Below are positions 19,191 through 62,219 of a DNA stretch of 64,000 nucleotides, piece after piece. The stretch comes from Moniliella sp. 'wahieum' (Eukaryota): NCBI GenBank assembly GCA_003971905.1, contig RSEE01000006.1, forward strand, positions 372,001-436,000, given 5' to 3'. The stretch's first letter is position 1, and the number at the start of each line of letters is the position of its first letter. Under the pieces are notes generated by a model. The model worked only from the letters and a program-made list of their open reading frames with translations. It was not told the origin of the DNA and did no database searches. The translations under genes were made by a program, and so were the position numbers.

Positions 19191-22100
19191 ATGCCGCTCC
19201 CCCCCGTATCGACCACATCCAACCAACCCAGCAGTCTCCGCCACCACCGCCACCAGCCTACGCTGCCGGAGCCCGCCATTTCCTCCTCGCTGCCGCCCGC
19301 CATGCCGTCTTCTACGCTTGACTCGGACGGCGACGAGCTCATGCCCGATGCGTCTGCACCGGCAACCCATGCATCTGCCAGTGGTGCTCCTGACAGCCAT
19401 GGCTCGGACCACTACCCCGTCCTTGATGACCCTAGTATCAGTATTGCGTCTGATCTTTTAGACGACGATGGCGATGGCGATGGTATGGACCCTCAAGACC
19501 TAGGGCACGAGGATGAGATGAGGATGAGGGGGACGAGGATGAGGACGAGGACGAGGACGAGGACGATGAGGACGATGGCTACTATCCCGACGGGGCTAAC
19601 CTCGGCATTGATCTCCGCGCCATGGCCAGCTTTTTCTCCAACTTTAACGAGCGCTTCAAGGTACTCTTGTCCGCCATCAAACCTGGCTCTGAACCATCCG
19701 AACAACTTGATGCGCTCGAAGAGCTCGCTGGGCTCTTGAGCATCAGTCAAGAGGACTCGCTCCTTGGTCAATTTCCCACCCGCGCTTTTGTTCGCGAGTT
19801 TGTCCGCATCTTAGGCGGCACGCCTCCCACCGGTGCGCACGACGACGAAGACTCTGTCCAGGAAGAAGTAGACCCTGAAGTGGCTGCAATTCTGAGCGCA
19901 GTTGGGAACGAGTCCAAGTCCGAGCGGCAGGTGCTCGCCTGCCGGTGCCTGGCCAACCTGATTGAGGCCATGCCCCAGGCGGCTCGTCGTCGTACAATCT
20001 GGCGGTGTTGAAGCCATGGTTTCCCGCCTGCTGGAGATTGAGGTCATTGATCTGGCAGAACAGGCTGCAAACACTTGAAAATCAGTGTGGACTACCCTGC
20101 CTCAATCGTCAAGGCCGGTGGGTTGATGGCTGTCCTTATGTACCTCGACTTCTTTAACCTCCACGTCCAACGCACGGCGGTGACAACATTTGCAAACTGC
20201 TGTCGCAAGCTCCAAGAAAGCGATGTAGGCATGTCCGCGACACCATCCCTCTCTTGTCCAACATGCTCGGCAACAGCGATAGGCGTATTCAAGAGCAAAC
20301 ATGCAAGTCCATCGTCCGTATTCTCGAGAGCTACCGCTTGTTCCCCGCCGTGCTGGCTCAATTGGTTACACCTGAGCTTTGTGTCGCTCTAGAGAAGGTT
20401 CTTGTACCACCAGCACCGATGTTGACGGGCCTACTTCTGCAGCTCCTGTGGCTACCATCCCTAGTTCCATGGTCACCGACTTGGTTCGCGCTCTTACCTA
20501 TGCCACCCGTTCCTCCCCCGCCGTTTCGCGTCATCTGCTGGAAAGCAATCTAGGCGATGCACTGTAATGCCATCCTTACCGGATCCCGTGCTCCCACGCG
20601 GACGAAGTGTCACCACCAACAGGCACAGGCAAGGTGGCATTACTGCAAAACCTTAGCACGCGGCCCAAGGAACAACTTCAAGAGGCACTCAGTTTGACCA
20701 TTGAGTTACTTCCCCTATCCTCCCAAGACAGGGGTGTTTGATGGACGCAACTACACGGAGCGCGCGTTGCAGCTCGTAACAGGCGAGCGGACAGCAGATC
20801 AAGCTGCCTCAATGGCGAAGCTGAATGCAGTCAAAGCCGCCCCAACCGAGATGGATCCTCAACAAGCCAAGCCTGTCTTGGCGCTCTGCAAGCTTATGCT
20901 CCCGCGCTGGTGGAGATTCATGCTGCGTCTGTCACACCCGCTGTGCGCCACACGGCGATTGTAGCCATTCTGAGGATCTTCGGCTTTGCCAATCCGACTC
21001 AGTTGGCTCAGCTCTTGGTTCCGGTGGCTGTCCCTGCCTTTTTGGCTGGTGCTGTCGTCTGATGATGCACCCGCGCTGGTGCAGGGATCCCTTCAGATTG
21101 TCGAGCTCCTGGTCGTCAAGTTGGGCGCAGAGTACTTACGCTTTCTGGAGCGGGGGGCGTCATCTGGGAAATCAAGCAGCTGGCTGAGCAAGAACTGTCA
21201 GGTGAACCGGGCCCGATCTACTCCGTTCCTAAGGAGGAACGTCGCTCCAAGGTCAATGCCAAGGGGCATCGCATCTGACTGCAGCTCAACAAAGGACATG
21301 ATCATTGTGCGGGCTCGCATCTTCCAAGCGCTCTACACTTCCCCTCGTCAGGCGGACACAAACGTCCTGCCTAGGGCAGAGGCTCTGGCGAATCTCATTC
21401 GTACGAGTGGCCTCACCTCCACCGAGGAAGCTCGTCGTGCGCTCGATGATATCCTTCTGGCCGTGACTTCAGAGGACGATGGTCTGGCTGGATGGGAGCT
21501 GCTCGCAGTCGGGTCTGATTGATGGACTGCTTGTCCTTCTTGGCGACACGGACGCACCTCTCGCTCCCACTGTACGGAGGCAGTTGTTTGATCAAGCGGT
21601 TGCTCGGCACCCAGACGGGGCACGCAAACTGGTTCAACGCCTTCAAGAAACAGTGAGCCGAAGTGAATCGGTCGAGGTGGTTAGTCTGTCGGGAGCGTTG
21701 GACGAGGAGATGCGTCGATTGCCCGGTTTGGCCTTAACGAAACAGATGCGGCTCAAACTCGTCTCGTCTGATTCGAACGTCCCTCGATCGTGTCAGACGC
21801 TGATGATCGGCATTCATGCTGTTGCTCTCGTATCGGAGTTGGACGAGTTCCTCCGTTCCAAGATCCAAGTGGCACAGTCGGTTGCTAATGGTGCAGGTGG
21901 AAATCGGCTGTCGTCGGTCTGGCGGCGTTTGCTGCTGCAGCTGAGCACCACCACCGAGACTAAATGATCAAGCTACTTCGCCGGGACCTCATTTTTCGGT
22001 TCGCCCACTGTCCGACGGCGACGATGGGCCTGCACGTCGTGAGGCGGCCGCTCGTACCTTGATGCAGGGGTTGTTGAGAGGCGCGTTTGATGACATGCCC

Positions 22101-24034
22101 GATGACGAGAGGCCGCCGCCGAAGGTGACACTGAACCCCAGGAGGAAATGACTGAGGAGCGGACTACTGGGGTGGACAGGGACAAGCCGTCTACTTCTGG
22201 TGAAGGTTCCTCTACTCCGGGTCCAGCTCTCGTCCAACGGAGGGGAGACGATCGACGTCCTTATTCTGACGCTCTGCAGCAATCACTCACACGGACGAGT
22301 GGCACATTGTCTTTTCGGTGGGAGATCGAGAGGTGGGCTTGGATGAGACGGTTTTTTGGGGTGGTTTATCGCATGGAGAGGAGAAGAACCCGGAATGGCA
22401 GCCGGACCGCACATTCTGGTCCACCCCTTACCCCGTCTCGTTCCGCAAGGTCAACGGGCCTGCACCCAAACCCGATCGTTCTCAAACGAAGGGTAAGTAG
22501 ACTTGGGGTTTTGAGAGGATACCAAACGCTGACTTGACTTGTGCAGACGATGCTCCCACTGCAGTAGACGTCTTCCCTCCCGAATCGGAGATGAGCAAGA
22601 CTTTGACGCTACTCCATGCGCTGTACGAGGCATTCACTCTTGAAACGCCCGAGAAATAGTCAGGAGTTTACGTCGCTCTTTGTCAACAATAAGCTCACAG
22701 CCAAACTCAATCGGCAACTCGAGGAGCCCCTGGTGTCGGTGAGCCTATTCTTCCACAATGGGCTCAAGAGCTGCCGCGGCGTATCCGTTCCTGTTTCCAT
22801 TTGCACCCGCTTCGCTTACTTACAAGCCACAGCCTTTGGCTCGACCCGCCGGTTGCGCGTTGGCAACCTTGCTTCGTTCCGGCGACTCTGCCAGTCCGTG
22901 CACGAGATGAGGCTTTGGGTACATTGTCCCTGCCCCGGCAAAAGGTGCGGATTGGGCGGATAAAGTGATCGATACGGTCCTCTCAGATTGCGAGTCGTAC
23001 GCCAAGGCTGACTCGATGCTGGAGGTGGAATACTTTGACGAGGTGGGTACGGGTCTGGGCCCGACATTGGAATTTTATTCGCTGGCTTCGCGCGCTTTTG
23101 CTCGTACCGACACGGCCATGTGGCTTGGGTCGGGCGGGACGGGGACGAGGAATATGTACGTGCGCCACAAGGACTGTTCCCTTCTCCTCTCCCAGGGGGG
23201 GAGACAACACCGGCAGGGATCAAGCAAGTCGTTGTTTCAAGCATTGGGCACGTTTGTCGCGAAATCGCTCTTGGATTCTCGCATCATTCACATCGAATTT
23301 AACCCCGTCTTTTGGCTCTCGTCATTGGTCGGCCCGTGGCGAAGACAGTGCGGACGGTGGCCCAAATTGACGCCAAGTTGGCATCCTCTTTGAATCAGCT
23401 CCTTTCTCTCCCTCCGGCGGAGGTGGAGCAACTCGGGATCGATTTCACGTTGCCTGGGTACGATTCGCTCGAGTTGGTTCCGGGTGGAAAAGACACGGCG
23501 GTGACGGGAGAGAACGTTAGGGCATATGTGGCGGAGGTGGTGGAGGTTTTGATTGGTCGTGGCACTGCGCCCCTGGTTGCTGCTTTCCGACAGGGCTTCC
23601 AGAAACTGATGGATCCCCAGGCTTTGGCTTCTTTCACTCCGGCGAGTTGGTTGAAGTGTTTGGCAACGCACCGGAAGATTGGTCGCACGCGACGCTGGCG
23701 ACGTACGTCAAACCGGACCACGGATTCACCTCCGAGTCGGAAGCGTACCTGAACTTGCTCAGCTCATGACGTCCTTTGACGCTCAGGAGCGCCGCCTTTT
23801 CCTGCAGTGGCTCACGGGATCGCCCAAGTTGCCCATTGGAGGGTTCAAGGCGTTGCAACCCCCATTGACGGTGGTGCGGCGTCCGCACGAGGCCCCACTG
23901 CAACCGGAGACTACCTTCCTTCGGTGATGACCTGCGTCAATTACCTCAAACTGCCCAACTATTCTACCAAGGTTATGGGTCAGCGTTTGCGCAAGGCCAT
24001 GGTTGAAGGTGGCAAGTCGTTCCATCTGTCTTGA
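19191..24034 (+). CDS. UFD4: HECT E3 ubiquitin ligase Ufd4/TRIP12 (ARM repeats + HECT), heavily frameshifted; intron 22493-22546
   Basis: [76 protein letters not shown]; catalytic [18 protein letters not shown]-terminus SFHLS*. Confidence 0.93.
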
Positions 24035-24424: not shown

Positions 24425-25852
<1,428 letters not shown>

Positions 25853-32509: not shown

Positions 32510-34012
32510 TCAGCCAAAACAAATTAACAACAAGGAACAAACACAGCCATCGTAGCTATTAGCTGCTGGAAACAAGATAACAGAACAAGTGGACCAGCGA
32601 GGCATCGTACCCCCCCCACCCCACGGAGCGCCACTCGTCCTACGCCTGCTTTGGCCTCCCGGCGCGCCGGCCTTGCCTGCCGCATCGAACACGGTCCAAA
32701 ACCTGAGCTCATTCGCGCCCGTATCGACGGACGCGAGTTTCTGTCCGTCGGGGGAGAGGACGGCATCGAGGATGCGGCCTTCGTGGGCACGATCGATGCG
32801 GTACAGCAGTTTGCCCGAAGGGTAGGACCAGAAACAGATGGCACCGGTACAGGATGCGTCGGTGGGGTGGGCACCATGGGTGGTGAGCAGTTCGCGGTGG
32901 TACCAGGACCAGTGGATCGAGCTGATTTGGGCCTCGGTCTGCCAGCTCATCAAGCGTGCTTGGGTCGCAACGTTCCAGATGTTGATGGTGCGACAGGCAG
33001 AGCCGCCGCCCGAGGCGAGGATGTGAGGATTAAATGGAGACCAGGACAGGGCCTTGGGCAGACACAACAGAAAACGTCAGCTTGCCGCCTAATGACACGG
33101 GGAAGGAAAAGAGAAGAAAGAAAGAAAGAAAGAAAGAAAGAAGAAAGAAAGAACATACCTTGACCGCTGCCTTGTGCTCTGAGCGGCTCAAGATCGGGCC
33201 CTCTTGCGTCCGGTCCCACACACGGACCAAATTGTCGTTCCCGCCCGACGCGAACAACGCGCCATCCGTTCGGTAGACCAGGCCACACACCAAGCCCGCA
33301 TGAGCACGCAGCATCCGCGTGGCTGACGAGGCCAAGCGAATGTCATGGTCGACAATCCAGCCTGTACCATACCCGACCGTGAGCGTCGAGGCATCGGCCC
33401 AGTCCATCGCGCCCACTTGGACAGTCACTTGCTCCTCCTCTGCCTCGTCCGACGCAAAGGCCGGAGCGAGAACTTCGGGCGGAACGTGTAGCGTGCGCAA
33501 CCGTTTTTTTTCGCTGCCACGTCCCACACTTGGGCTGCCCCACTGGCCGTGCCCACTACCACACAGCTTCCCTCGGGGTGCCACCGGACCGCGGTCACGA
33601 GTGCAAACGGGCCACCGCCTAACTTCTCTGGCTGCTGCGCCAAGTCAACCAACTCGACCGTGGCTGCATCGCAGTCCCATACATACACCGCCTGGCGCAG
33701 CACGATGGCCACTTGGTTCGCCACGCTCCAGTCGAGAAGATGGTGGTAAAAGTCGTCGGAAATGTCCGCGGCGTCCAGCACCTTTTCTGGTCGTCCTGAA
33801 ATGGCGCGATGGGCGCGCAGGGCAGCGGTAGGGATCTTGGGCTTGCTGGAAAACGACGCGTTGGCAGCGGCAGCCGAGCCAGGCGCGGCAGGAGCAAAGG
33901 ACAGCACCTTTTGCACGGGAAGGTCGTGCTCTGGCTCGACGTGGGTGGGGGTCGAAGGGGTGCAGCTGGAGTTGGGCGTCTGGTCTTGGGTGGCGTGCAG
34001 GGCGGGGCGCAT
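32510..34012 (-). CDS. CDC20: Cdc20/Fizzy-family WD40 APC/C co-activator-like protein; intron 33053-33158
   Basis: KVLSF motif; PEKVLDAADISDDFYHHLLDWS; HAGLVCGL...ASGGNDNLVRVWD; HKAAVK|ALSWSPFNPHILASGGGS...IWN; ELLTTHG; NELRFW. Start and stop positions are uncertain. Confidence 0.85.
33112..33152. repeat. (AAAG)n microsatellite in the CDC20 intron
   Basis: agaagaaagaaagaaagaaagaaagaaagaagaaagaaaga. Confidence 0.9.
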
Positions 34013-34563
34013 GGCGGCCGAAGGGGAAGGTGCAACAAACGTGCGGGTGGTGTGGAGCGAGCTGGTGGCTCGGCTGGATTCCCGGTAGAGAGCGGCGAAC
34101 GAGTGTTGAACGTTGTGGAGAGTGGAGAGTTGAGAGCAGCATCTACGCCCGAGGCTGTTGCACCGAACGTGCATTGAAACATTGCCCCACGCACCCAACA
34201 CCCAACATGCACGCTCCCAAAAAATAAAAAACAGATCGATTGGGCCGCTGCGGGCAAGATAACCGGTTGGCAACCGGCAACCCTCACTAACCAACCAACC
34301 AACTATACCAAGCAGACGGGGCATTGGGCAGAGCACCAACATGACATGGAAAGCGAGATGCGAAATGCGAAAGTAACATGGCCGCCGCCCCGATCCGGCC
34401 GGGACAGGCATAATAAAAAGGGGAACAGGGTGGATTAGCAAGGCAGCCGAGGAGATGGGTATGATATGCATGGTGCTGCCTCGCCAAAACGCAGGCCCAA
34501 TAGCCCACCGAACCGACCCAGTAAGGTTCAGCTGAGGCGACCCAAACGAGGCGCACACTAGTA

Positions 34564-36063
34564 TTAGGGAAGCTGCGCCATCAGCGCATACAATGCAACC
34601 GAGCTCGAGGCCGCCAGGGCCAGGGTACTACCGACGTTGGCCACGTTGCGCACGCTCGCAGCCCACGTGCGAACCTGCCTCGACGATGACGGCTCGGGAG
34701 CCTGCTCGGAGCCTGCTCGGGAGCCTGCTCGGTGTTCTCCGGAGCACGATGCGTATCGTGGGCGAGCGACCCAGCGGCCGGCGGTGTCAACGACCCAGGC
34801 TCCTGGGTCCATGCTGACCATATCCCCCCTGGGCGGGGGACAACGAGAAGCAACGGCAGGCAAGGGAGAGAAGGCAGGTGCCAGGGCAGGCGGTGACACT
34901 GAATCGGACCGAGTACGGGTCAGTTCCTCGTCCTCGGCCATTGGAGGCAGTATTGGATCGGGGGTTCAGGGGGTGCGGGTTCGGGGTCGGGTCGGGGTCG
35001 GACAAAGGCAAGGGCAATGGGACAGCCGAGGACATTGGGGCCGGGATGGGGGAACTGTTGGGGCAGGGGAAGCGGGCGAGTAAGCTGACAGGTCGAGGGC
35101 GGAGAGGACGGGTAGCTTGAGGCCCATCGACACTTGCGACCGAGGTGTGGGGGAAGGAGCGCGCGCGGCGTGGTCCCGGCGGGTCGGGAGGCGAGGCAAA
35201 GTAGCTGAGACTCGTGCCGCGCCTCTCGCCGGGGTAGGAGAGGTGGGTGTGGCCTTCGCAGCCCCACGAGTCGAGGTGGGGAGAGCGGTGGAGAGGCGAG
35301 GAGGTGACCGGGCTGGAATGCGTGTGGGACTCCACCCGAGCGATCGACGACGCTTTTGCGCACACGCTCGATCGACCAGCTGTAAGCGGCGCAGGCCATG
35401 GCTGCCCGCTTCACCAGTCGAGCCAAGCCGTTGCTCCGCTGCTCTGGGAGCCGGCGGCATCTGTTTCGTCGGCTTTGGGTTGGAGCGGTACATGGCTTGC
35501 ATCCGTTCGGGGCAAGTGGGAGGACAGAGTGAGGACAGGTGGACAAGGGGCTGGGCATCTGGCTCGGGCTCTGTACGTGGCGCGGCAGAGGCGAAACCAA
35601 CGATGGGGGCGAGACCACCATTGACTGGTACGTTTACTGGTGCGGCTGGCGCGGCGCAGGCCAGCGGCCCAGTCCAGGCCAAAGTCGGGTGCTGGCTCGT
35701 ACTCATACGGCTCAAGAGAGCCATCAATATCGTAACGCACGGGCGGCGCGGCGGGGGGCGTCGGGGCGCGGGGCGTGGTCTGGGCCGCAGGAGAGGAAGA
35801 GGGGAGAGCGAGGGAAGGTGGAGTGCGATGGGGTGGACGAGAAGAGGTGCCCTCGAGGGCGGCGATGGTGGCAGCGTGTGCGCGTGCGCGTTCGGCGGGG
35901 TCGGGCGAGGGATGGCGGGGCAGCTGGAGCGGGCGGAGGCAGGGGCCGAGGCGCTTGCCGTGCTCGCGCTGGGGCGCAGAAGAGGACGCCGACGCGGCAG
36001 AGGGCGAGGAGGGAAAGACGAGGCCGAGGCCCAGCGCGGGCTGGGCGGGGGCAGGGGCGACAT
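34564..36063 (-). CDS. Hypothetical Pro/Ser-rich protein with a C-terminal hydrophobic segment
   Basis: Overlapping frameshifted minus-strand ORFs ending VRNVANVGSTLALAASSSVALYALMAQLP*. Confidence 0.4.
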
Positions 36064-44859: not shown

Positions 44860-47800
44860 TCACCTCAAGTGAGCTTGGGCGGCTTGCAAGGCGGCCTGCA
44901 AGCGCGCCAGTGCGGGCGAGGAAGGTTCGGCCTTGCTTCGTTTCGCGTGCCTGCGTTGTTCTGGAGGGCGGCAGGGTCGGGGATGTGGCGCGGCCGACCT
45001 GGTCGGCAGATCCGTTCGGTTGGGTGACCTTGCAAGGGTGGGGAACTGGGGGGCTGGCCCGACCCCGGGCGCAGGGGCTCCCTCTCCTCCTCCGCCCGCC
45101 GCGTCTCGTTTACGTTTGGTCAATGTGGTGGGGGGGGCAGTGGCCAGGTCGCCCGCGGCCTCGGCTGCGTTCTGGGCCCACTGGTGGCAAATGAGTTGGA
45201 ACGTAGGGTGCGAAGCGGGGGAAAAGGAAGAGGTCGAATGAGGTCGAAGCCAGTGCTCATCAAGGTAGCCCAGCGCAAGCGCTAGCAACTCATCTACCAC
45301 CCGGAAGAACGGGAACGGGTCTGTGCCGAAAGGAGAGAGAAAAGAAGAAGAACAAACAAGGTCCCAAGTCAGTTTGCCGCCACAGGCTACACCAGCACCA
45401 TCCAGTGACGTACCCATGCCCAGCATACGCCCCTCGTACTTCCCCCGCCACCAGTTCAAGGCCCGGGAAGAAGCGCGTTTGGAGAGCCGTGTTGACAGTG
45501 CGCAGAACCAGCGACCAAAGCGCTTTATCAGGAGTCGTACTCCCTTCCTCCAGCGCCACCAGGGGCAAATGCAGTGACTCGTCTTCGTCCATGAGCGTTC
45601 CGAGTGTTGCCACACCAGGGTTAACAGTAGGTTGGCCGAGTGAATGGCAGCGAGCCAGAGAGTGGAGACGTGGTGGACCGCCTCGCGCGCAACGGCCGGG
45701 TTGGTGCGTGACACAGTCACCATCTGATCCACAGACTGTTGCACGGCCAGTAGCGCAGCGCGCCACACGGCCAGCAGAGGCGAAGCAAGCGCGTGCACAG
45801 TCTTGGCCGTCACCTCGTCTACGGGGGCGGGGGGCGAGCTGAACTCGCCACAGCAGGTGGGTCAGACCAGCATCGAACAGTTGGGCAAGCATTTCGGGGC
45901 GGGGCCCGCGTCCGGCTCCACACGCGAAAAGGTAGGACGGGTACCCGGGGCCAAATGAACAAGGTGCACCTGGTCCACTCCACCTGGCCAGGCACCCACT
46001 TCGGGCTGCAGCCGCTCCAGCGTCGTCTGTTCCGCCCCGCGCCGGGCCAGGCGACAACCAGGAGCTTGGCGTACCACTTGCCGGGCACGCGCTGCGACTC
46101 GACATGCCGCGTCAACTCGCCAATCCGGCGACGCGTATCAGCCCAGGCCTGTACGCTGGCCGGCGAACATTCAACAATCGACAACAGTATCGAGGACTCC
46201 TCTGCTCCTCCATTGAGGGGACTGGAAGGAAAGGCGAGCACGCGCAACGAGTGATGCTTGTTGATGATCTGCAGCTCATCGTCCGCCAAGGCATTGCGCA
46301 GGTACGCCGACAGCGCCCCGCTCCCTCCTTCTTCCACGGGGGAAAAGCTGCACAGGGCATCCGTCTTCTTTGGCCACAAGTCAGCATACAAGTCGGCCGT
46401 ATCCCGTACCCGTTCGTACACGAGCAACGTAAACTGCCCAGTAGCCCAGAGCGCGTCGCGCAACTTGCGCCGCGCAGTGAACGCTTGGGCCAATTTCATA
46501 TCATCCACCGCCTCTACCGTCCCATCAATCTCCATCGCCCTCTCGTGAACCGGACGAGGCAGACGATGGACCTGCCTGCTCCTTTACCTGCTCGACACGG
46601 GCCAAAACCGCATTCCAGCGCTTGGTCGCCAACCGTTCCCGCCAAGCCGAAAACCAATGGGACAAGAGGTGAGCATTGCGGTACTTGATAGCCCTACAGC
46701 CGAGCACGCACGCTGCACCCCTTGCTCCACCGCACTGGGTACCATACGGTCATACAAGTTGGTAGCCAACCGCTGCAGATGCACGTTCATCGCACGCAGC
46801 TGGCCCACCTTGGCCGCCCGCTGGGAAGGCCGCTTGACGACAGACTGGGCCAGGCGCCCATAAATCCGGCCACAGAGCCGAGAAAGAAACTCCTGTTCTT
46901 GAGCTGCGCTCGGCCGCTGGGGCCTTTTCAGGGCCGGGACCGAGGCTGCAGGGGTGCGTGCCAGAGATGAGAAACTTGGTGTTGTCGTAGGCGGTACGGC
47001 AAGGGCGAAAAACCTTGGGTTCGCTGGTTACTGGTTTCGAGGGCAAAAAGCCTACACTAGGCTTAGGCGGGGGCAGGCGGGAAGCAGGTTGTGATCCTTG
47101 GGTATCGGGCTGAAGTGGTGTGACAGAAGGGGCACCACCAAAGAGTGGGAAGGAAGGCTTATTGGACTCTGGCACGGCATTGATAGAAGGAGCTTTAGGC
47201 TGGAATAACGTCGATGTCTAGGCGCTTCCGTGCGAGGAGAACTAGATGAAGGAACCACCCCAGGAGTTCCAAGTGTGTTCTCAGGCAACTTGGGAGGCTT
47301 AAAGCCAGCGGATGATGGAGCATGAACCTGGTCAGATGCAAAGGTGAAGAGCTTGGATGTGGCTGGAGCTGGAGATGGAGCTGCAGCTGGAGAAGGAGCC
47401 GAAGGCAGGGGCGTCTTCGGAACAGGCGCCGTTGCCCCCGGTAAAGGGGACGAGAACGTGGGTTGAAGCGGAGGCTGCGGCGGAACCGCTGGTGCGGGAG
47501 CCACAGAAGAGTGGATGCGGACGCAAAAGAGGTTGCAGCAGCTGGAGCTGGCGGAGTGAAGGCACTGGAGAACCCAGCAAATCCATTGTTAGGGCGAGTG
47601 GCTGCCGCAGAAAACGCCCCGGTTGTTGGTGGAGCCGAAGGTGCCTGCTTTGTCGCAGCCAAGGTTGGGGCAGAGGATGCCGGCACTGGGGCGCGCGGGA
47701 CGAATGAGTTGGCGAACGCGTTCAGTGTGGGCCGCGTTGCTGAAAGATCTGGACCTGCGGCTCCGTTCGCAAACCCAGAGCGTGACGGTGGCGTTGCGGA

Positions 47801-49243
47801 CGATGGAGGGGCAGAAACAGTGGAGGTGGCGGTGAATGAGAATGGCGCGGCGGTGGGCGGGCAGTTCCCGGGTTGTCGATGATTTCCTGGCAGCTCCTGT
47901 CCTTGCGCTTGCGTTCGAGGGCGCGAGAGAAGGGTGTCTTGATCGGCTTGCTGGCTGCAATAGGCGCATGAGCCAGCTCAAGGCGCTGCTCGCCGGTGCG
48001 CTCGTGGAGCATAGGGCGGATATCCAGCTGTTCTGCCAAGTCCATCACCTGTGCCTCATCGTCAAACCCCAGCGCTTGGGCGAGCCAGTCGAGGGGAGGA
48101 ACATCCTGCCGCCGCATGGTCCGCGCCAAGGACCGCAGTCCTGCTCGCCGAACATCGGCAAACAGCTCCTCGGCTATGCACCCCAGCAGGTAGTCCGTCT
48201 CAGGCCGAGAGACCAGAGAGAAGAACCGAGCAAAAAAGGCCAAGCCATGAGCTGGAAGCGAGACTGTGTCGGCCCGGCGCAAGGCAGCAGGATCACACCC
48301 CTGGATCAACGCTCGAATCTTCAGTGCAGTTTTCAGGGTCGGATGGGCGAGGACAGGCGCAGGCAAGACCTCCACCTCGCGTAGCGCTTCCGAATCGTAA
48401 GCGCCCAGCAAGAGCTGGTAGGCTCGGAATTCCCCCTCATGGGGCGAAACGGGAGCGTCCCGGTCCTGATCCGCAGGCGATCTTGACGACATCGTCGTAG
48501 TACTCGACAAGACTGCGCAACGTCTTCCTGAGCTGCTCAAGCTCCTGCTGCTGACTCCATGTGTTTTCCGCACGCGTTCCGTCCGCGTTGGCGGGCGGCT
48601 CAGCCATCTGGCCGTCGGCTTGAACAGATCCCGCGGAAGTGGAGAATGAGGATGTGATAACGCGCGATACGCTCGTGTGCCTCAATGGCTTCGGCGCCGT
48701 GGACATTCTGAACCACAAAGTCCTGGCGCACAGCGCGTGTTCGATTCCACACAAAAGCCTGGATCTCAGTGAAACGGGGGTGGAAAGGGTCGGAAGGCAA
48801 TAGGTCGTGAAAGAGGTAGTCCAAGTCTTGAGCAACACCGGAGGCGGTCGCACGTCTTCGGGCAAAGGCACTTCCCGTCCGGCAGCCGGTCGACGATAAA
48901 TCTTGACGGCAGGCGAGCCATCTTGTTCGAGCGGGTCAAGTTCGCGTTGCATCTCACGCTCCACCAGCTCAAAGGCCGGGCACATCGTCGTGCACGTGCC
49001 CACCAGGTTCTGGGCACCACCAAGTGACCTGGCTTGACCGGGATCCTGCATGCTCCCGTCGTTAATGAGGGCAGCGCGATGCGCTTCGCGCTCCTTCCGG
49101 AGGCGATGGAATTCGGCCTCGACTTGGGTGGCAGCGAGGGAGCCCCCGGCGGCGCTTTTCGACGCGCCGCCCAGAGCAAGGAAGCCTCCGAGTGATGGGG
49201 CAGCGCCCCTTCCCATGGCGCGGCCGTCCATCTTGGGCGGCAT
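44860..49243 (-). CDS. SAC3: SAC3/GANP mRNA export factor (TREX-2 scaffold), frameshifted
   Basis: LVGTCTTMCPAFE...AVKIYRRPAAG...PEDVRPPPVL...FVWNRTRAVRQDF...HERIARYHIL...QELEQLRKTL...EGEFRAYQLL, followed by an F-rich nucleoporin-like low-complexity region and a helical C-terminus. Confidence 0.88.
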
Positions 49244-49473
49244 CACGGGCGGCGGGAGCGGATGGTGGGAGTGGCAGTGGAGGTGGTGGTGCCTGGCTCG
49301 CCAGGGTTGCAATTGCAGATCCGTGCGAAAAATAGATTTTGCACCTATTTTTGGACTGGATTTCGCCGCCTGGTGTCAGTGAGAGCCTCTGTTTCGTCCC
49401 GCACCCACGCCTTTCGTTGATTTGTTTCTCCACGTCTCCAAGCGCCGGCCCCCACTTCGATACAACCAGCACG

Positions 49474-50920: not shown

Positions 50921-53576
50921 ATGGCTACCCGTGGACGCGATGGCGGTGCTGCCGGCAGCGGCGATTCGTACGAATCGCTTTTCCGCAGCGCGCCAGATGT
51001 CCCTGGTCCAGATCTATGTCCCTGGCGAGGTGGCCCATGCCACCGTCGCCGAGCTCGGCGGCCTGGCAACATGCAGTTCAAGGACCTGCTCCCAGACGTC
51101 CAGTCCTTCCAGCGGCCGTTTGTTGACGACATCAAGCGCCTTGACGACATGAATCGCCGTGTGCGCTTTCTCGAGATTGCATGACCAAGGAGGGGGGCCC
51201 ATCAAGCCCCTTGACCCGGCCGTGCCCGTCCTGATTGGGGGCTCCCGCCATTTCGCTGGGCACCCATGCCGGAGGGCCACAGGTAATGGACACGCTGTCG
51301 TCCGAGCTCAAGGAGGACGAAGATCGTGTTTCCAACATGAACAGCTCGTACGACACCTGGAGAAGCGCCTGGTTGAGCTGGAAGAGGCACGTCACGTTCT
51401 CCGTGAGACGGCCGTCTTTTTTGAGCAGGCCAACCCCTCGGGTGCCAACACTGTCGGCACCCGCATCTCGACAGATGATGCCAGTGCGCCTCTCTTGGAT
51501 GATCTCGAGTCGGGGCTGCAGCAGGTGCATGACAACGAATCCGCTTTGTCAACCTGGACCTCGAGTATGTATTTTGTCTCTGCTTGTGTGAACTTTGCCC
51601 CCACCATCATTTTTTTCTAGGTTCGTTGCCGGTACGATTGACCGCTCGCGCATGGCTACTTTTGAGCGGATTGCCTGGCGTTGCTCCGCGGTAACCTGTA
51701 CATGAACTATGCTGAAATTGCTGCGCCGTTCCACGAGCCGGGACGCGAGGACCCGGTGTACAAGAATGTGTTTATCATCTTTGCCCACGGTGCTGAGCTG
51801 TTGGCCAAGATTCGCAAGATCAGCGAGAGCATGGGGGGCACGCTTTACCCCGTCGACGCGAATGCCGATCGTCGGCAAGAAGCGTTGCGCGAAGTGACCA
51901 GCCGGATCGAAGATTTGGAGAGCGTGCTGTACAGCACTGCGGCCACCCGCCGCACCGAGCTGGCCAGTCTGGCAGAAAACGTGTCGGGATGGGGCGAGCT
52001 GGTGCGCAAGGAACGTCTGATCTACGCCACGCTCAACCTCTTCCAGCGCGACGCGAGCGGCAAGACGTTTGTGGCGGAAGGATGGGCCCCGACTGCCGAT
52101 CTGACGAGCATTCAGCTTGCTCTTCGCCGTGCCACCGAAAACTCGGGTACGGCCGCCTCGCCTGTTCTCCAGGTGATCCCCACGTCGGTGACGCCACCGA
52201 CGTACATGCGGATCAACAAGTTTACCGAAGGCTTCCAGGCGCTTATCACGGCGTACGGTGTTGCGTCCTATCAGGAGGTCAATCCGGGCCTTTTACTGTC
52301 ATCACCTTCCCTTTCCTCTTTGCGGTGATGTTTGGTGATGTGGGCCACGGTCTGCTGATGTTCTCCGCCGCGTTGGTTATGGTGCTGTATGAGGACAAAC
52401 TGGCCAAGGTGAAGGACGAAATTTTTGTCATGTTTTTCTACGGTCGCTACATTGTCCTACTTATGGGCGCATTTGCAATCTTTACGGGCACCATGTACAA
52501 CGACCTGTTCTCCAAGACGATGACCCTCTTTCGCCCGGTTGGACCTACCCACGGGCCGATGGGATGGTGGAAGCGCAACAGACTGTTTACCCCCCTCGGT
52601 CTCGACCCGAGCTGGCATGGGACTGACAACGCACTCATCTTTACCAACAGTTTGAAGATGAAAATGTCGATCCTGTTGGGTGTGGTGCACATGGTGTTTG
52701 CCATCTGCCTTCAAATTCCCAACCACATCCACTTTAAGCGGACCAAGATGATTGTTGCTGAGGTGGTGCCGCAGCTGCTGTTTATGTTGGCCCTGTTTGG
52801 CTATCTGAGCTGGACAATTGTGTACAAGTGGTCCATCGACTGGTGGGAGCTGGACCAGGACGGCAACCACATTCACCACAACCCGCCCGGGTTGCTGAAC
52901 ATGTTGATTTACATGTTCCTTGCCCCCGGATCGGTTGCCGAGGACGAGCAGTTGTACCCTGGCCAGGCCTTCCTGCAAGTTGTGCTGCTTTTGTTGGCGT
53001 TTGCCTGTGTCCCTTGGATGTTGGCTGCCAAGCCGTACCTGCTCTGGAAGGAGGCGACAGCGGCGAAACAGGCGGGCTACCATGCTGTTGGTTCTGCGGT
53101 GCCCCGGCCGACGACGAGGAAGACGAAGAGCCGAACGGGAGTCACCATCGCAATGGATCGGCCAATGGCGCGGCGGGCTCGGCCGAGACCACAGTGAGGG
53201 GGAGCACGAGGAATTCGAGTTGGGAGAGGTGATCATTCACCAGGTGATCCACGTCATCGAATACTGCCTTGGCTGCATTTCCAACACGGCTTCGTACCTT
53301 CGTCTGTGGGCCTTGTCTTTGGCGCACGCGCAACTGAGCGAGGTGTTGTGGAACATGACGCTGGCCATTGCGCTGCCCATGGAGGGCACGGCGGGTGTGA
53401 TCATGTTGACTGTCATGTTTGCCGTTTGGTTCTGCTTGACGATTGCCATCCTGTGCTTGATGGAAGGGCTGTCGGCCTTCCTCCATGCTCTTCGTCTCCA
53501 CTGGGTTGAGGCGGGCAACAAGCATTATGCCGCGGCAGGCTATCAGTTTGAGCCTCTTACCTTTGTCCTCGAATAA
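50921..53576 (+). CDS. VPH1: V-type ATPase V0 subunit a (Vph1/Stv1); intron 51565-51620
   Basis: [100 protein letters not shown] (essential Arg intact); [13 protein letters not shown]. Confidence 0.96.
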
Positions 53577-53941: not shown

Positions 53942-56342
53942 TCACGGTGACGCGTCACTGCGGCTTGGTACTGGCCTTGCCCAGATCGATCGAATCCATA
54001 TCCATGCCGTGGGCATACGAGTGAGGCAAGTTGGGGATCGTGGGCAGCGTTTGAGGGGACGAAGCATACGACGGTGAACCGTAGCCAGGCGAGCCATAAA
54101 TGGTAGGCGCACGACCGAATGCGGTTGGGCCTGCTGGTACCCACTGGGGTCGTTGGGCGTAGCAGGCTCCCAGTACATCTGCGGTTCCGGACTGGCGGGG
54201 TTGTTGGCAGAAGCGGCTAGATCGGGCGACCAGGATTGCCATGGTTCCCAGGACGCTTTGGGGTGGGTAGGGGTGGGCAAGGGCCCCTCGTCAAACAAGG
54301 TGTAGTACCCCTGCTCAGGTGTGCAGGGTGTGTAGGGTGTAGGGGACCTTGTTTCCTCGTCATGGGGAGGGACGAGGTGCGGTTGGGATGGTGAGGATAC
54401 CCTATAATCAGTGTCCACTGCATTATCGTCGTTGGTCGTAATTGGGATGGCAACAGCTCCTTCCGGAGGTTGATGAGGGGGGAAGACAGAAGACGTGCCG
54501 CCTTCTGCATTCTTCTCTGTTATCGGCGCATCTCTTGCCCATCATCCGTTGCGGGTTCCTCTTTTGCTACCCCCCTGCGAAGGCTATAGCCCTTGACCAA
54601 CGCACATGCCACCAGCCCAATCGCAGCCAGAGGTGTATCGACAATCCAGATCAGCCGCACCGCCAGACTATACTCGTACTGAGCTTGCTGGGACAGTTCG
54701 GGGGGCTGCAAGGTGCGGAGGTAGTGGACATCCGATAAGACTTTGGCCGGAGCGTCGGCTGGCAAACCAGCAATTTTCTTGGCCCGTCGAGTCCAATCCG
54801 AGTTGAGAAGCGCACCACCAATCGCAATGCCCATTGTCGTCGACAGCTCCCGCACAAAGAACATGGTTGCAAGTGTCGAGCCAATTTCAGCGACCGGCAT
54901 TGCAGCCGACAGGGCAATGATGGGGTCTGGTACAAACATCCCACCCCAATGCCCAGGATAGCAGGAAACACCTCTTGCAGCACCCGGCTTGTCTTGGAAG
55001 TCAGAATGCACATCAGAGCAAATCCCACCGTCATGAAACCAAATCCGATCCACAACATGAACCGGTACGCTCGTGCCTTGGTAATTGCGTACCCGGCCCC
55101 AGCTGAGACGAAGGAGGAGCAGACCAAGTAGGGAAGAGCATAGACGCCCGACATGAGCGCATTCGCGCCCGTCACGACCTGGTAAAAGTTGGGAAGGTAG
55201 TAGGTCACGTTGATAAAGGTGATGCCGTGCATGACCACTTGCAACAGCACGAGAAGGGTAGTGCGGGTGTGGAAGAGGCGACGAGCGACAATGGGTTGTC
55301 GCGTTGTCTTTGCGTTCCAAAAGCCAAAGATGATCATTAGCCCGCCGCCTGCGACGATTGTTGCAATCGTCTCGGTAGCTTCCCAGCCATTCGTCTCTGC
55401 CGTGGAAAACCCGATAAGGAAGAGGACCGCACCGCCGCTGATGAGAAAGAGACCGAGAAAATCAAACTCACGCAACAGCTGTCGCAGCGGCATTGTCGGT
55501 TTGGGGTTGAGATGAAGGCAAAAGACGAGCAGGACTTGGGCAATGCCACAAATGGGCACATTGATATAGAAACACCAGCGCCAGCTTGCCCATGTAGTTA
55601 ACGCACCTCCAAGTAACGGCCCTGCCACACTAGCCACCCCCAGCATGCTCCGATCCAGCCTGAATACTTGCCCCGCTCTTCCAGCGTCGTGATATCGGAC
55701 AGGATGATCTGGGAAAGACTGGAGATCGCCCCTCCTCCCAGACCTTGGACGGCACGAGCGACAATGAGCCAGTTGATGTTCTGCGCCGTACCTGCCAGAG
55801 CACTTCCAATCAAGAACAAGCCTACGCCGCCATACATGAGCGGTTTGCGGCCCACCATGTCGCTCAAACGGCCATACATGGGGTTTAATGTTGTGGTAGC
55901 CAGCATGTACGACGTGGCCACCCAGCTTGGCAGAGAGGCAAAGTATCATGTTAGTTACAACCACAACCCCAAACCAGAGGAACAGAGCCCAAGGGAGAAG
56001 ACATACGAGTAGCCCGCAGCCGTGGCATGCAGATCAGCTGCAATGGTCGGCAGGGCAGGGGCCACGACAGACTGGTCCAAAGCGGCAGCAAAAACACATA
56101 GCATCAAAGCAGAGAAGACGGCAAACATATTGTTGGGCGGGATAGCTTCTTCCTTTTCCATCTGCAGCCAATGGGTCTCCTTCTCGGGAAGCGATTTGCC
56201 TTGCTTGCTGGGTTGGGGCGATCCTATCGCTGTTGACGCCACCTCGGCGTCGTCGGAAGCGAGGAACATGGAGCGCGAGTCGACTGCATCGCCCAGGGTA
56301 TAGAAGGCGTGGTGAGGCGTGAGATTGAAGTGGTGGTGCCAT
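53942..56342 (-). CDS. MFS drug:H+ antiporter, DHA2 (14-TMS) family, with long C-terminal tail; intron 55926-56006
   Basis: FAAALDQSVVAPALPTI; GYS|WVATSYML; motif A YGRLSDMVGRK; ARAVQGLGGG; motif C GPLLGGALT; WRWCFYINVP. The tail continues after a frameshift near 54530. Confidence 0.9.
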
Positions 56343-57070: not shown

Positions 57071-57076
57071 AAAAAA
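57071..57076 (-). terminator. RNA polymerase III terminator (T6) of the tRNA
   Basis: TTTTTT on the minus strand 4 nt after the discriminator base. Confidence 0.75.
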
Positions 57077-57080
57077 TAAG

Positions 57081-57176
57081 TGCTAGAAATGGGACTCGAA
57101 CCCACAACCTTCAGAGACCTTGCGTACGTAATGTACACACTTAAGTCTGACGGCTCTACCATTGGCCCATCCTAGC
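57081..57176 (-). tRNA. tRNA with UAA anticodon (Leu), 23-nt intron 57117-57139, short variable loop
   Basis: Cloverleaf: acceptor GCTAGGA/TTCTAGC + A73; D-arm GGCC-AATGGTAG-AGCC; anticodon stem TCAGA/TCTGA with loop CT-TAA-G^C; V-loop AGGTT; T-arm GTGGG-TTCGAGT-CCCAT. Confidence 0.88.
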
Positions 57177-57451
57177 ATTTTCTTACGTCCGAATCTTTCC
57201 TGATTTTACCATGAACCGTCATGCATGTAAGAAAAGAGGGACTCGTAATCTAGTTGCATGTCACATGCAACAGAGAATACCATGGAAAAGGGGTTGCCAG
57301 TTGATAGACCTGAATACCTACCCGACCACCTTTACGCTTTGGGGGGGGGGAACTACCTGCACCTCGCACGACGTGCCTCACGATCCCCACCTCGCATCTC
57401 GCATCTCGCACTAAGCTGTCCACCCCCGTTCCTCATCGCCCATCATGCACC

Positions 57452-59583: not shown

Positions 59584-62219
59584 ATGCCCGCCGGCATGCC
59601 CGCACCAGCGCCATCCATGCGCGCCGCGCCAGCAGCTCAGCGCCGTCGTCCCGTCCCCTCCGCCCCCCCCGTCGGCCCGACGAGTATGACTCGGTCGTCG
59701 CCATGGCCCACCCCTCCCACCCCCACCACGCCCACTATCTCGCCCAGCGCCTCCCCAGCGCCTCCCCACCCGCCCCCCATCCCCACTCCACCCCACCTCC
59801 TGTGTCTCGCCACCCCCGTCCCGCCGCGACCGCCCGCGTGACCCGCGCCGGCAGCGCTTGCGTGAGCAGCAGCAGCGCCAACAGCAGCGCCATCGGCGCT
59901 CCCACACCTCGCCCACGGACTGGTCCAGCCAGCTTCCCTCGAAGACCAGGCTTCGGAACCGTCGGACCCCGACAGCAGTGTGGCCGCCGTTCTTGCCGCT
60001 GCTTTGACCCCGGTCACCCTCAGTGGCGTCGCACAGCACGCTACTCACACCCATGCCCATCCGCCTGCCCATGGCCATCCTCGCGCCCCCGTCTCCCGTG
60101 CCCGTACCCGAGTCCGTGCCTCTGCACCTCCTACCGTTTTGCCTATCGCCATCCCCGACCTGCCTGAATCCAGGCAAGCCAACACCTCCATCTCCTTCCT
60201 TCCTTCCGCGCCGAGGGGCAACTCCTTTTCTTCCCGTCAAACCAGCAGAACGGATGAGCAGGTCGAGTCGGACGCTGAACCCCCCATGACAGGCAGCAGG
60301 CCCAGGCACAGCGACCTGGCGCGCTCGGCCTCGGTTTCCGCCTCGGTCTCGGCCTCGGTTTCGGCATCGAATACTTCCTCCAAGCTTCGGTTTGCTGACC
60401 TTCCCTTGGGCGACCGAAACTCCCGCGCCGGAACCGCGCCTACGCCCAATTCGACGGCAACTGTGCCCGCTTCTGCTTCTCCACGGACGCCTGGCCATGG
60501 GGAGAACCGGAGAAACACGAGCTCTATATGGCCAACACGTACTTTATTCCTCGCCGCATCGCTCCCATTGCGCCGCCGACTTCCTACATTGCCCCGCGGA
60601 GAGAGAGGAGTGTATCCTCTTCCTCCGCGTGGGGGTTTTCGGTTCGGCGTTGTCCCTCTCCTCGGGTGGGTCCCACGGTTCGGCCGGATCGGCGAAAACG
60701 TGCCAACAGTGAAATCAGGCCCTCCTCGGCTTCGAGTCACCAATCTGCCAATCCGGACCCTCCCGCCCGGCGTTCGGGCAAGACCAACCTTCCCGCCTCT
60801 CTTTCCACGCCCAGCTCGCCCATACCGGCTCTTATCTCGCGCCTGACCCATTGGCGGCGCCGGTCGCAGAACGTGGGGACGTGGATATGGAAAAAGTGGG
60901 ATTGGGATTGGGATCGGGACTGGGCTTGGGACTGGGCTTGGGAATGGGAATGGGATTGCCCTCCTCACCGCGCAGCGAGGCGGAAGAAGGTGGTGGGGCA
61001 GCATCGGACGAGATGGAGCACATTCAGGACCCACCTGGCCCCTGAGAAGCTTCCTGACGTGAACCTCGCCTCGCCCTCGGACCACTCTCCGGGACCGATC
61101 TCGCCCCCGCCTCGGCCCCGTACCTTCTCTCGCCCCTCACCCCGCCCCACCTGTCCTCCAGCTCGAAAAAGGGCAAAAAGGTCCCTCCCCCGCTCACGTT
61201 GGCATCACGACGGTCGGTGCACCTTGGCAGCTTGCTGGGACCGCGTCCTTCGTCCATGGTCCTGGACAAGGACAAAGACAAAGACAAGGACAAGGACAAG
61301 GACGTGTGGGGCCCAGGAACGATTTACAAAACGCTCTCCCCGCGCTTGGAATTGGAGCAGGACAATAATAACGAGCCAGATCCGATCCTTGCCCGTCGTC
61401 CCGCTCCTTTCCTCTCGCACACCCGCGGTTTTTCCCTTGATAACCGCGCATCCACTCCCGTCGTAACCCCCCCCCCTCCCAGCGTCGGCTTCGGCTTCGG
61501 CTTCGGCTTTCGCTTTGGCGCCTGTCCCCAACGCACCCCATCCATCTTATGCCCCGTTTCCTATGGCACGGCATGCCAGGCATCCGCCCCCCCCTTCATC
61601 GCGTCCCTCTGCCTCTGTCTCTGCCTCTGTCTCTGCCTCTGTCTCTGCTCTGTCTCTGCCTCTGTCTCTGCCTCTGCGTCCGCATCTGCCTCTGCCCCTG
61701 CCTCGGCCTCTGCCTCTGCCTCGGCACCTTGCACCACCCACCCTCCACCTGCGCCGGTACCACCCCGATGCTCGTGTCCCCGCCGGGTGCCTTGCTAGTC
61801 TGGCCCCAGCCCGGCGCTCAGGCTCGGGGTGCGCAAGTGGTTCGGGCCTAGCTGTGTCGGTTGACGCCATGGGCACTTGCGCAGCATCGCCCGCGCCTGG
61901 CCCCACGCTCTCCACGCACACCCAGGCGGGGCGGTAGCGCTAACCGGTCTCGGCTTCCCCCACGTCAATGCCAATGGCAATGCCGGTGCCGGTTGCCAGT
62001 GCCGGTGCCAGTGCCATGTTTGGACGGGCCCGGGCGTGGTGCAAGCCAGCGGAAGCGGCTGGACGGGACATGGATGCGTTTGAGGCGATGCTGCGCGGGT
62101 TGACCAGGCCGACAAGGCCGTTCGCGCCCACGTTGTCGCGCAGCACGTGCATGCCACTCGGTCCACCTGAGGCTGAGGTCAGGCCTGATGCAGCCTACCG
62201 CATTGGCCATGCCAGCTGA
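59584..62219 (+). CDS. Hypothetical low-complexity Ser/Pro/Ala-rich protein, frameshifted
   Basis: Chain of overlapping + strand ORFs with dipeptide repeats, ending MDAFEAMLRGLTRPTRPF...YRIGHAS*, followed by a T-rich 3' region; no domain recognised. Confidence 0.45.
61606..61725. repeat. (T/C)CTCTG hexamer repeat
   Basis: ctctgcctctgtctctgcctctgtctctgcctctg... Confidence 0.85.

Follow-up and report, generated by a model that had tools for sequence, protein, structure and literature searches.

To our knowledge, all known cytosolic tRNA-Leu carry a long variable arm. Animal mitochondrial tRNA-Leu, which are recognised through A73 and A14, are described as the only known leucine tRNAs that do without it (PMC9976931). 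Short-arm genes bearing a Leu anticodon have nevertheless been recorded as isotype/anticodon disagreements, and disagreement with the predicted isotype is the flag by which tRNAscan-SE marks such genes (PMC8450103). One of these, in human, lies a single anticodon base (position 36), and 7 nt in total, from a known tRNA-Met; its history has been traced across primates, and it is regarded as a silenced pseudogene or as a gene with another role (PMC8450103). Short-arm copies that combine a Ser(UGA) anticodon with a Thr model were reported from Serpula lacrymans (PMC8450103). In yeasts that reassigned CUG, the decoder is a tRNA-Ser(CAG) or a tRNA-Ala(CAG), the tRNA is conserved across the clade, and the meaning of the codon has changed (PMC5951914, PMC11342251). 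In full-text literature searches, a short-arm cytosolic tRNA with a UAA anticodon was not found described for fungi.

We analyzed a gene of this kind, first noticed in an earlier sequence-only reading, in a 64-kb stretch of DNA, hereafter the window. Rfam returned one match in the whole window, to RF00005 on the minus strand (57176..57081; 50.6 bits vs a gathering score of 29; E = 6.7e-08; model positions 1-71), and no second tRNA. When introns were allowed, ARAGORN called one gene, tRNA-Leu(taa) with a 23-nt intron; without introns, it called no tRNA in the window. A score of 50.6 bits is ordinary for an intron-bearing tRNA gene: an intron-bearing tRNA-Arg(UCG) from one of the metagenome loci described below (L014) scores 51.8 bits, and the intron-less tRNAs in the same loci score 41.7-73.9.

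All coordinates were re-derived by script from the window sequence, and all features lie on the minus strand. The pre-tRNA gene spans 96 nt (57081..57176) and encodes a class-I cloverleaf interrupted by an intron (Rfam, ARAGORN with introns allowed, script). Its 5' exon (57140..57176; Rfam, ARAGORN) covers positions 1-37, that is, the 5' strand of the acceptor stem, the D arm, the 5' strand of the anticodon stem, and the loop bases C32 U33 UAA G37. The 3' exon (57081..57116; Rfam, ARAGORN, script) supplies C38, the 3' strand of the anticodon stem, the variable loop, the T arm, the 3' strand of the acceptor stem and A73. By script, the acceptor stem has seven pairs, including one G.U (57176-57170 with 57088-57082), and the anticodon stem is a perfect 5 bp (57150-57146 with 57115-57111). 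The loop holds C32 U33 (57145-57144), the anticodon TAA (57141..57143; Rfam, ARAGORN, script), which would read UUA and, by wobble, UUG, then G37 (57140) and, across the intron, C38 (57116). The 23-nt intron (57117..57139; Rfam, ARAGORN, fold, script) occupies the canonical 37/38 site. In the Rfam alignment, it appears as a 26-nt insert across three anticodon-loop positions, and ARAGORN places it one base more 3' than the canonical reading. C32 faces the antepenultimate G of the intron, and the two may form the anticodon-intron pair. The script also located the variable loop, AGGTT (5 nt; 57106-57110), the T arm, with a G49.U65 wobble and the loop TTCGAGT (57089-57105), and the discriminator A73 (57081). 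The remaining core bases are U8, G9, A14 (U8:A14), A15, G18 G19, G26, U48, and the G1-C72 pair. For the sequence as assembled, the architecture proposed in the sequence-only reading therefore stands: Rfam, ARAGORN and the script agree on the cloverleaf, TAA and an intron, the script recovers G37, C38, A73, the 37/38 site, the T6 run, A15/U48 and the intron G opposite C32, and Rfam and ARAGORN both give the 5-nt AGGTT region with no long arm.

The D arm (57152..57167; Rfam, ARAGORN) is irregular, with a C13.A22 mismatch or a bulged A, a G11-C24 pair, and an 8-nt loop. Rfam flags 13:22 (C.A) as non-standard and reports one inserted D-loop base; ARAGORN draws a stem of only 3 bp. A run of six T residues, a putative Pol III terminator, lies 4 nt past A73 (57071..57076; script), and a TATA-like TAAAAT, a candidate promoter element, lies about 30 nt upstream of position 1 (57203..57208; script), in a leader that is A+T-rich although the window as a whole has about 60% G+C. 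The T arm reads GGTTCGAGTCC, which, judged against the Pol III box consensus, is the internal B box. The irregular D arm, the TATA-like box and the one-base shift of the ARAGORN intron had not figured in the sequence-only reading.

Folding of the tRNA strand gave -36.1 vs a shuffle mean of -24.66 (z -3.8), lower than 200 of 200 shuffles. In the minimum-energy fold, the intron makes its own 7-bp hairpin. The idea that this hairpin is a hidden long variable arm was rejected on inspection of the fold, since only 11 nt would be left for the anticodon arm. No direct or inverted repeats were detected around the gene between 52000 and 62000, except for a coding 12-nt periodicity farther along. A copy carried by an LTR element or a SINE was set aside because there is no repeat at the locus, with which a solo copy would still be compatible.

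Taken as assembled, the sequence is that of a genuine predicted Pol III tRNA gene with a canonical 37/38 intron. Like eukaryotic nuclear intron-containing pre-tRNAs, it has a single intron at 37/38, a pairing partner for position 32, and Pol III signals. It shares a Leu anticodon, G37 and A73 with the class II cytosolic tRNA-Leu but has 5 nt where these have a long variable arm. A35 A36 stand where a tRNA-Arg anticodon has C35 followed by G36 or U36. The gene combines the anticodon of one isotype with what appears to be the body of another, as isotype/anticodon disagreements do.

The body had been described in the sequence-only reading as Lys-type, a description that comparison with metagenome tRNAs did not support. 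A first metagenome scan, with a pattern made of the anticodon stem, TAA-G, the variable loop and the T arm, gave no match. A second scan, restricted to a 23-nt motif from the 3' half, matched at least 118 loci; ARAGORN called 190 tRNAs in those listed, 90 of which contain the motif. Among these matches, Arg accounts for 58 of the 90 vs 3 for Lys, the others being Met (7), Gly (5), Val and Ala (3 each), Ile, His, Gln and a CTA anticodon (2 each), and Asn, Leu(GAG) and Trp (1 each). Another 28 listed loci have no called tRNA over the motif and are mostly 3' fragments, none with a UAA loop. In all, UAA was found in the anticodon loop of none of the 118 scan-2 matches listed, and 12 YTTAAR strings upstream of the motif belonged to flanking DNA or to the loop of a Lys(UUU) gene. 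Seven tRNAs among the matches listed carry exactly the same 22 nt of variable loop and T arm, G49.U65 included, and all seven are Arg (three UCG, three UCU and one CCG); the pattern of the second scan left 5 of these 22 positions free. The D-loop motif, which lies outside that pattern, occurs in 14 of the listed tRNAs: Arg(UCG) in eight, Gly(UCC) in three, a CTA anticodon in two, and Arg(CCU) in one. One of the two CTA-anticodon genes is Arg-like, which brings the Arg or Arg-like carriers to 10 of 14, with no Lys among them. Because the 3' motif, the exact 3' domain and the D-loop motif are mostly or only Arg, the body is best called Arg-type rather than Lys-type, on sequence likeness in a sample skewed to bacterial, organellar and phage tRNAs.

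Closest among the Arg genes listed are three eukaryote-type Arg(UCG) genes, two of them (L014 and L045) with a 37/38 intron like that of the window gene and one (L066) intron-less. All three share with it the D-loop motif, G26, G37, the variable loop, and the whole T arm including G49.U65; they differ from it in anticodon positions 35-36, position 38, the 31:39 pair, the whole acceptor stem and the discriminator, and their D arm is regular. Other isotypes share other parts. The Lys(UUU) gene L052 has an identical anticodon stem, variable loop and T loop, and L052 and the Ile(UAU) gene L083 have the anticodon stem or the general architecture in common with the window gene. A canonical long-arm Leu(UAA) gene (L047; loop CTTAAGA) is equal at 6 of 7 loop positions, including G37, and shares A73 and 4 of 5 anticodon-stem positions on each strand, but its variable region measures 15 nt, vs 5 nt here, and its D loop is longer. 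With the forced motif and the loop set aside, L047 agrees at 31 of 43 positions, vs a median of 25.5 for 100 motif-less tRNAs, and is as similar as the Arg genes. Overall identity did not discriminate a parent among the 190 ARAGORN tRNAs, as the top values (31-33 of 43) are spread over Gly, Arg, Met and Leu. A Tyr(GUA) parent after a one-base loss was rejected: the window gene has G1-C72, and the rule for Tyr is C1-G72 (PMC9976931). A Phe(GAA) parent changed by G34U would fit the loop, but the D, variable and T loops are unlike those of tRNA-Phe, a weak ground for rejecting it. The listed loci hold 21 distinct tRNAs with a Leu or Ser anticodon; five, each with a Leu anticodon, are of short-arm length, so gene finders meet such predictions regularly.

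Set beside the described systems, the window gene resembles the human one in being a high-scoring nuclear gene with a Leu anticodon, no long arm, and a class-I body of another kind (PMC8450103). The Met parent of the human gene has been traced, whereas the Arg-type parent proposed here is presumptive and differs at two or more loop positions. The Serpula lacrymans copies are likewise from a basidiomycete and likewise place a class-II anticodon on a short-arm body, but they are identical high-copy repeats with shared flanks; the window gene is the lone tRNA in 64 kb, with no flanking repeats within 5 kb on each side. Animal mitochondrial tRNA-Leu are organellar, intron-less, degenerate in their cores, and served by a mitochondrial LeuRS, whereas the window gene is of nuclear type, lies in DNA of 60% G+C and has a predicted Pol III terminator. 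The CUG decoders of yeasts also join a Leu-box anticodon to another body, but TTA here still aligns with Leu.

For TTA, homologue alignments of two neighbouring genes, an MFS transporter gene and Ufd4, showed no sign of reassignment. The TTA codons cited in the sequence-only reading are present and lie at positions where homologues have Leu or another hydrophobic residue, which argues against reassignment, as had been claimed. In the MFS gene, the in-frame TTA at 55616 aligns with L 63, V 31, I 24 and T 1 (n = 119), the TTA at 55601-55599 with F 70, L 34, V 8, I 6 and Q 1 (n = 119), the TTA at 55888 with S 43, L 19, T 19, A 12 and others (n = 112), and the TTA at 54738 with L in 23 of 52. Leu occupies all four sites in the nearest two homologues (85% and 60% identity) and three of them in Tilletiaria. 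In Ufd4, Leu is found at 19811 in 81 homologues and Met in 62 (n = 147), and Leu predominates at 20706 (17/19), 21734 (23/25) and 22820 (15/22); 20640 aligns with V 10, L 3 and I 3 (n = 19), and 23075 with Y 11 and F 6 (n = 25). At the sites covered by at least 19 homologues, Leu is the commonest residue in 6 of 10, with neither Lys nor Arg at any of the 10. Eight further TTA positions were left out for having nine or fewer aligned homologues or stop-containing frames; at one of these (21136, n = 7), the homologues have Arg or Lys in four. The V-ATPase a gene has no in-frame TTA. Under a strict filter, three TTA sites gave a mean Leu fraction of 0.43, vs 0.52-0.75 for TTG, CTG, CTC and CTT and 0.33 for CTA, too few sites for statistics. 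Among 1395 verified codons, 170 encode Leu and 5 of these are TTA; since the codon is in use, though rarely, there must be some leucine-charged UAA decoder. Within these two genes, TTA thus appears to be read as leucine. Low-level ambiguity would be invisible to codon alignments, in either direction.

The accuracy of single bases turned out to weigh more than the sequence-only reading, which had raised it as a caveat, assumed. Homologues were aligned to the window by tblastn, and changes of frame were counted only where there was no room for an intron. Across four conserved genes (about 10.1 kb), this gave at least 13 frame breaks, or about 1.3 per kb; most are one-base losses, and they are clustered in places. 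The V-ATPase a gene (about 51.0-53.6 kb; closest to Tilletiaria anomala at 66% identity, then Tilletia at 62% and Malassezia at 59%) aligns in frame 3 up to 52289 for residues 24-436 and in frame 2 from 52286 for residues 436-708. It has two breaks, the first at a T4 run that is one base too short for the conserved peptide. Two breaks were also counted in the MFS transporter gene that adjoins the tRNA (56% identity to Tilletiaria; closest homologue 85%), at C5 and C4/G4 runs. By the identities of these two proteins, the DNA comes from a basidiomycete near the Ustilaginomycotina that has no close named relative among the sequences searched. Ufd4 has at least four, one at a T5 run and three without a run of four or more, and the glutamate dehydrogenase gene has five, at runs of three or none, plus one that may span an intron; two of its losses lie about 9 nt apart where homologues imply C3 runs. 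Pfam matches to CDC20 and SAC3 also fall on overlapping ORFs in different frames. With at least 13 breaks in four conserved genes, single bases here are unreliable. About 0.12 errors are expected in a 96-nt tRNA gene, and homopolymer runs inside this one are at most 3 long. A first-stage reading of this kind selects for oddities.

We rank first, as the most likely reading, a real, anticodon-shifted and partly degenerate Arg-type paralogue of the kind that tRNAscan-SE would report as an isotype/anticodon disagreement; this is a tentative preference, which we hold with slightly less than even confidence. Such a gene would be transcribed, and its product probably spliced. C35, followed by G36 or U36, is a prominent determinant for yeast ArgRS (PMC9976931); with A35 A36 in their place, the two anticodon bases used by that enzyme would be gone. 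Having also no long arm and a weakened D arm, the tRNA would probably be poorly charged or uncharged and play a small role in decoding, and TTA would be read by an ordinary long-arm tRNA-Leu(UAA) encoded elsewhere. The D arm is non-canonical however it is drawn, as expected for a copy under relaxed constraint. Several observations speak against this paralogue. The change from UCG to UAA takes two adjacent substitutions, and that from UCU to UAA a 2-nt deletion; the acceptor stem and A73 differ from those of the metagenome Arg examples. The differences are grouped at positions 35-38, with all stems but the D stem intact, which looks directed rather than like random decay. The agreement with the L047 loop at 6 of 7 positions and the intact promoter and terminator also count against it.

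Ranked second is an assembly indel, which we judge possible but on the unlikely side: an ordinary intron-bearing class-I tRNA would have lost one or two anticodon-loop bases in an uncorrected long-read-type assembly. Introns occur in yeast tRNA-Lys(UUU) and in eukaryotic tRNA-Ile(UAU). A loop of CTTAAG could arise in one event from Lys(UUU), if T4 became T2 and the intron started with AG, from Ile(UAU) minus U36 with an intron starting with G, or from Val(UAC) minus C36, the intron supplying the next loop bases in each case. The density and clustering of frame breaks in the four conserved genes favour such an error, as does the Lys(UUU) gene L052 with its matching anticodon stem, variable loop and T loop, and the one-base D-arm oddity might be a second error. 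Yet that oddity resembles an extra base rather than a missing one, and the errors that could be pinned down are mostly single-base losses in runs, whereas two bases must go from a single run on the Lys route and one specific base outside runs on the Ile and Val routes, and the runs in the gene do not exceed three. The exact 3' domain, moreover, is Arg only (7/7 among the matches listed); there is no indel route from Arg(UCG), and the one from Arg(UCU), a loss of CU, removes two bases outside any run. C38 is unusual for the sampled Lys, Ile and Arg loops, and the error would by chance have produced a loop acceptable for Leu(UAA), purine 37 included. A working arm-less tRNA-Leu(UAA), which would be the first short-arm leucine tRNA of the cytosol, seems improbable to us. 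LeuRS would charge it through A73, G37 (and A35) and the tertiary core of the D and T loops, and it would decode UUA alone or beside a canonical copy. The gene has A73, A35, G37, U8:A14, G18 G19 and the T loop. Of these, G37 and A73 weigh heavily in recognition by yeast LeuRS in vivo, and A35 less so (PMC3488233, PMC9976931); the E. coli and human enzymes leucylate minimal variants that have A73 but no arm (PMC9976931). The gene signals are also intact, the changes are focused on the loop, and TTA is in use (5/170) and aligns with Leu. Against this, a large variable region is given among the Leu determinants of eukaryotes (PMC9976931), the D arm is irregular, and the assembly is unreliable. 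UAA is absent from all 118 listed matches of the 3' motif, and the specific scan gave none. We would give similarly little credence to the broader proposition that a smut-related basidiomycete lineage decodes UUA with an arm-less cytosolic tRNA-Leu converted from an Arg-type class-I tRNA; if true, the class-II rule for leucine tRNAs would have its first exception beyond animal mitochondria.

A decaying canonical tRNA-Leu(UAA) that lost its variable arm, rather than a converted class-I tRNA, is in our view just as hard to credit. It would account for A73, for the likeness to L047 in the loop (6/7) and the anticodon stem (4/5 per strand), for the 31 of 43 positions matched outside motif and loop vs the median of 25.5, and for a D region equal in length to that of L047 under the 3-bp stem of ARAGORN. 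It would not account for a variable loop and T arm letter-identical to those of tRNA-Arg (7/7 among the matches listed), nor for A15:U48 and a short D loop, which are of class-I type; no simple deletion of the L047 arm yields AGGTT, and the organism that carries L047 is unrelated. Least probable of all is a tRNA mischarged with Phe, Arg or another amino acid and causing ambiguous decoding of TTA. Of the four conserved Phe determinants, the gene has three, A35, A36 and A73 (PMC9976931), the homologues have Phe in 70 of 119 at the TTA at 55601-55599, and they have Arg or Lys in four of the seven at 21136. But the gene lacks G34 and G20, which yeast PheRS needs, Leu stands at the Phe-majority site in the three nearest homologues, and Lys or Arg appears at none of the 10 well-covered sites.

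If the gene is a dead paralogue or an assembly slip, single-base features here would be untrustworthy, and the assembly should be polished before anticodons are interpreted. We consider a sequencing slip or a mutated spare gene likelier than a leucine tRNA of a new kind. Should the bases prove correct and the RNA be produced, the locus would be a natural experiment in tRNA identity, in which an apparently Arg-type body has been stripped of the anticodon determinants for ArgRS and given a loop and a discriminator that fungal LeuRS reads. Were this tRNA charged with leucine, a eukaryotic cytosolic LeuRS would be shown to do without the long arm in vivo, and a route for the capture of Leu-box codons would be shown as well.

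The assembly of the window has the look of an unpolished one, and any single-base feature within it is suspect. Four conserved genes, those encoding V-ATPase a (50997-53573, + strand), an MFS transporter (54226-55906, - strand), a Ufd4-like ligase (19592-24031, + strand), and an NADP glutamate dehydrogenase (24428-25843, - strand), have broken reading frames, with at least 13 frame changes that leave no room for introns. Most of these changes are losses of one base, and they fall at homopolymer runs, whether short or long. CDC20 (32513-34627, - strand) and SAC3 (47725-49375, - strand) are probably frame-broken likewise. Upstream of the tRNA gene, at a distance of 165 nt, is a run of ten G residues (G10; 57341-57350), and other long runs in the window include G12, G13, and C11. 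The true lengths of these long G/C runs are uncertain, because the assembly contains run-length errors.

In the glutamate dehydrogenase alignment, a stretch of approximately 80 nt that falls between homolog residues 87 and 99 (window about 25477-25596, - strand) has no counterpart and is probably a short intron. Runs with a 12-nt period, of the CTCGGC/CTCTGC type, were also observed within long ORFs at 60312-60377 and 61583-61737; they are probably coding low-complexity repeats.

A homolog of the MFS transporter (P0121) was found with 85% identity on a 14.5-kb contig of a public read-archive assembly; a close relative has therefore already been sequenced. This contig may also include the orthologous tRNA locus.

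Among the metagenome loci matching the 23-nt 3′ motif of the tRNA gene, one (L005, about 290-426, - strand) carries an Arg-type tRNA gene whose anticodon loop is split by an insert of ~56 nt. The insert starts with GTAAGT, contains TACTAAT, and ends with CAG, and is followed by an apparent UCU anticodon and then a short canonical intron. Judged by these motifs, the insert resembles a spliceosomal intron, a likeness that could also be due to chance.

Short-arm tRNAs with Leu anticodons were observed in other such loci (L038, 43-363; L012, 339-412; L046, 339-414). On one metagenome contig, three of them, with anticodons CAA, CAG, and GAG, lie within ~320 nt; on a second contig a canonical long-arm Leu(UAA) tRNA is adjoined by a short-arm UAA tRNA. 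These metagenome tRNAs look like members of phage-type or bacterial tRNA arrays, and such short-arm "Leu" tRNAs may be worth a separate study.
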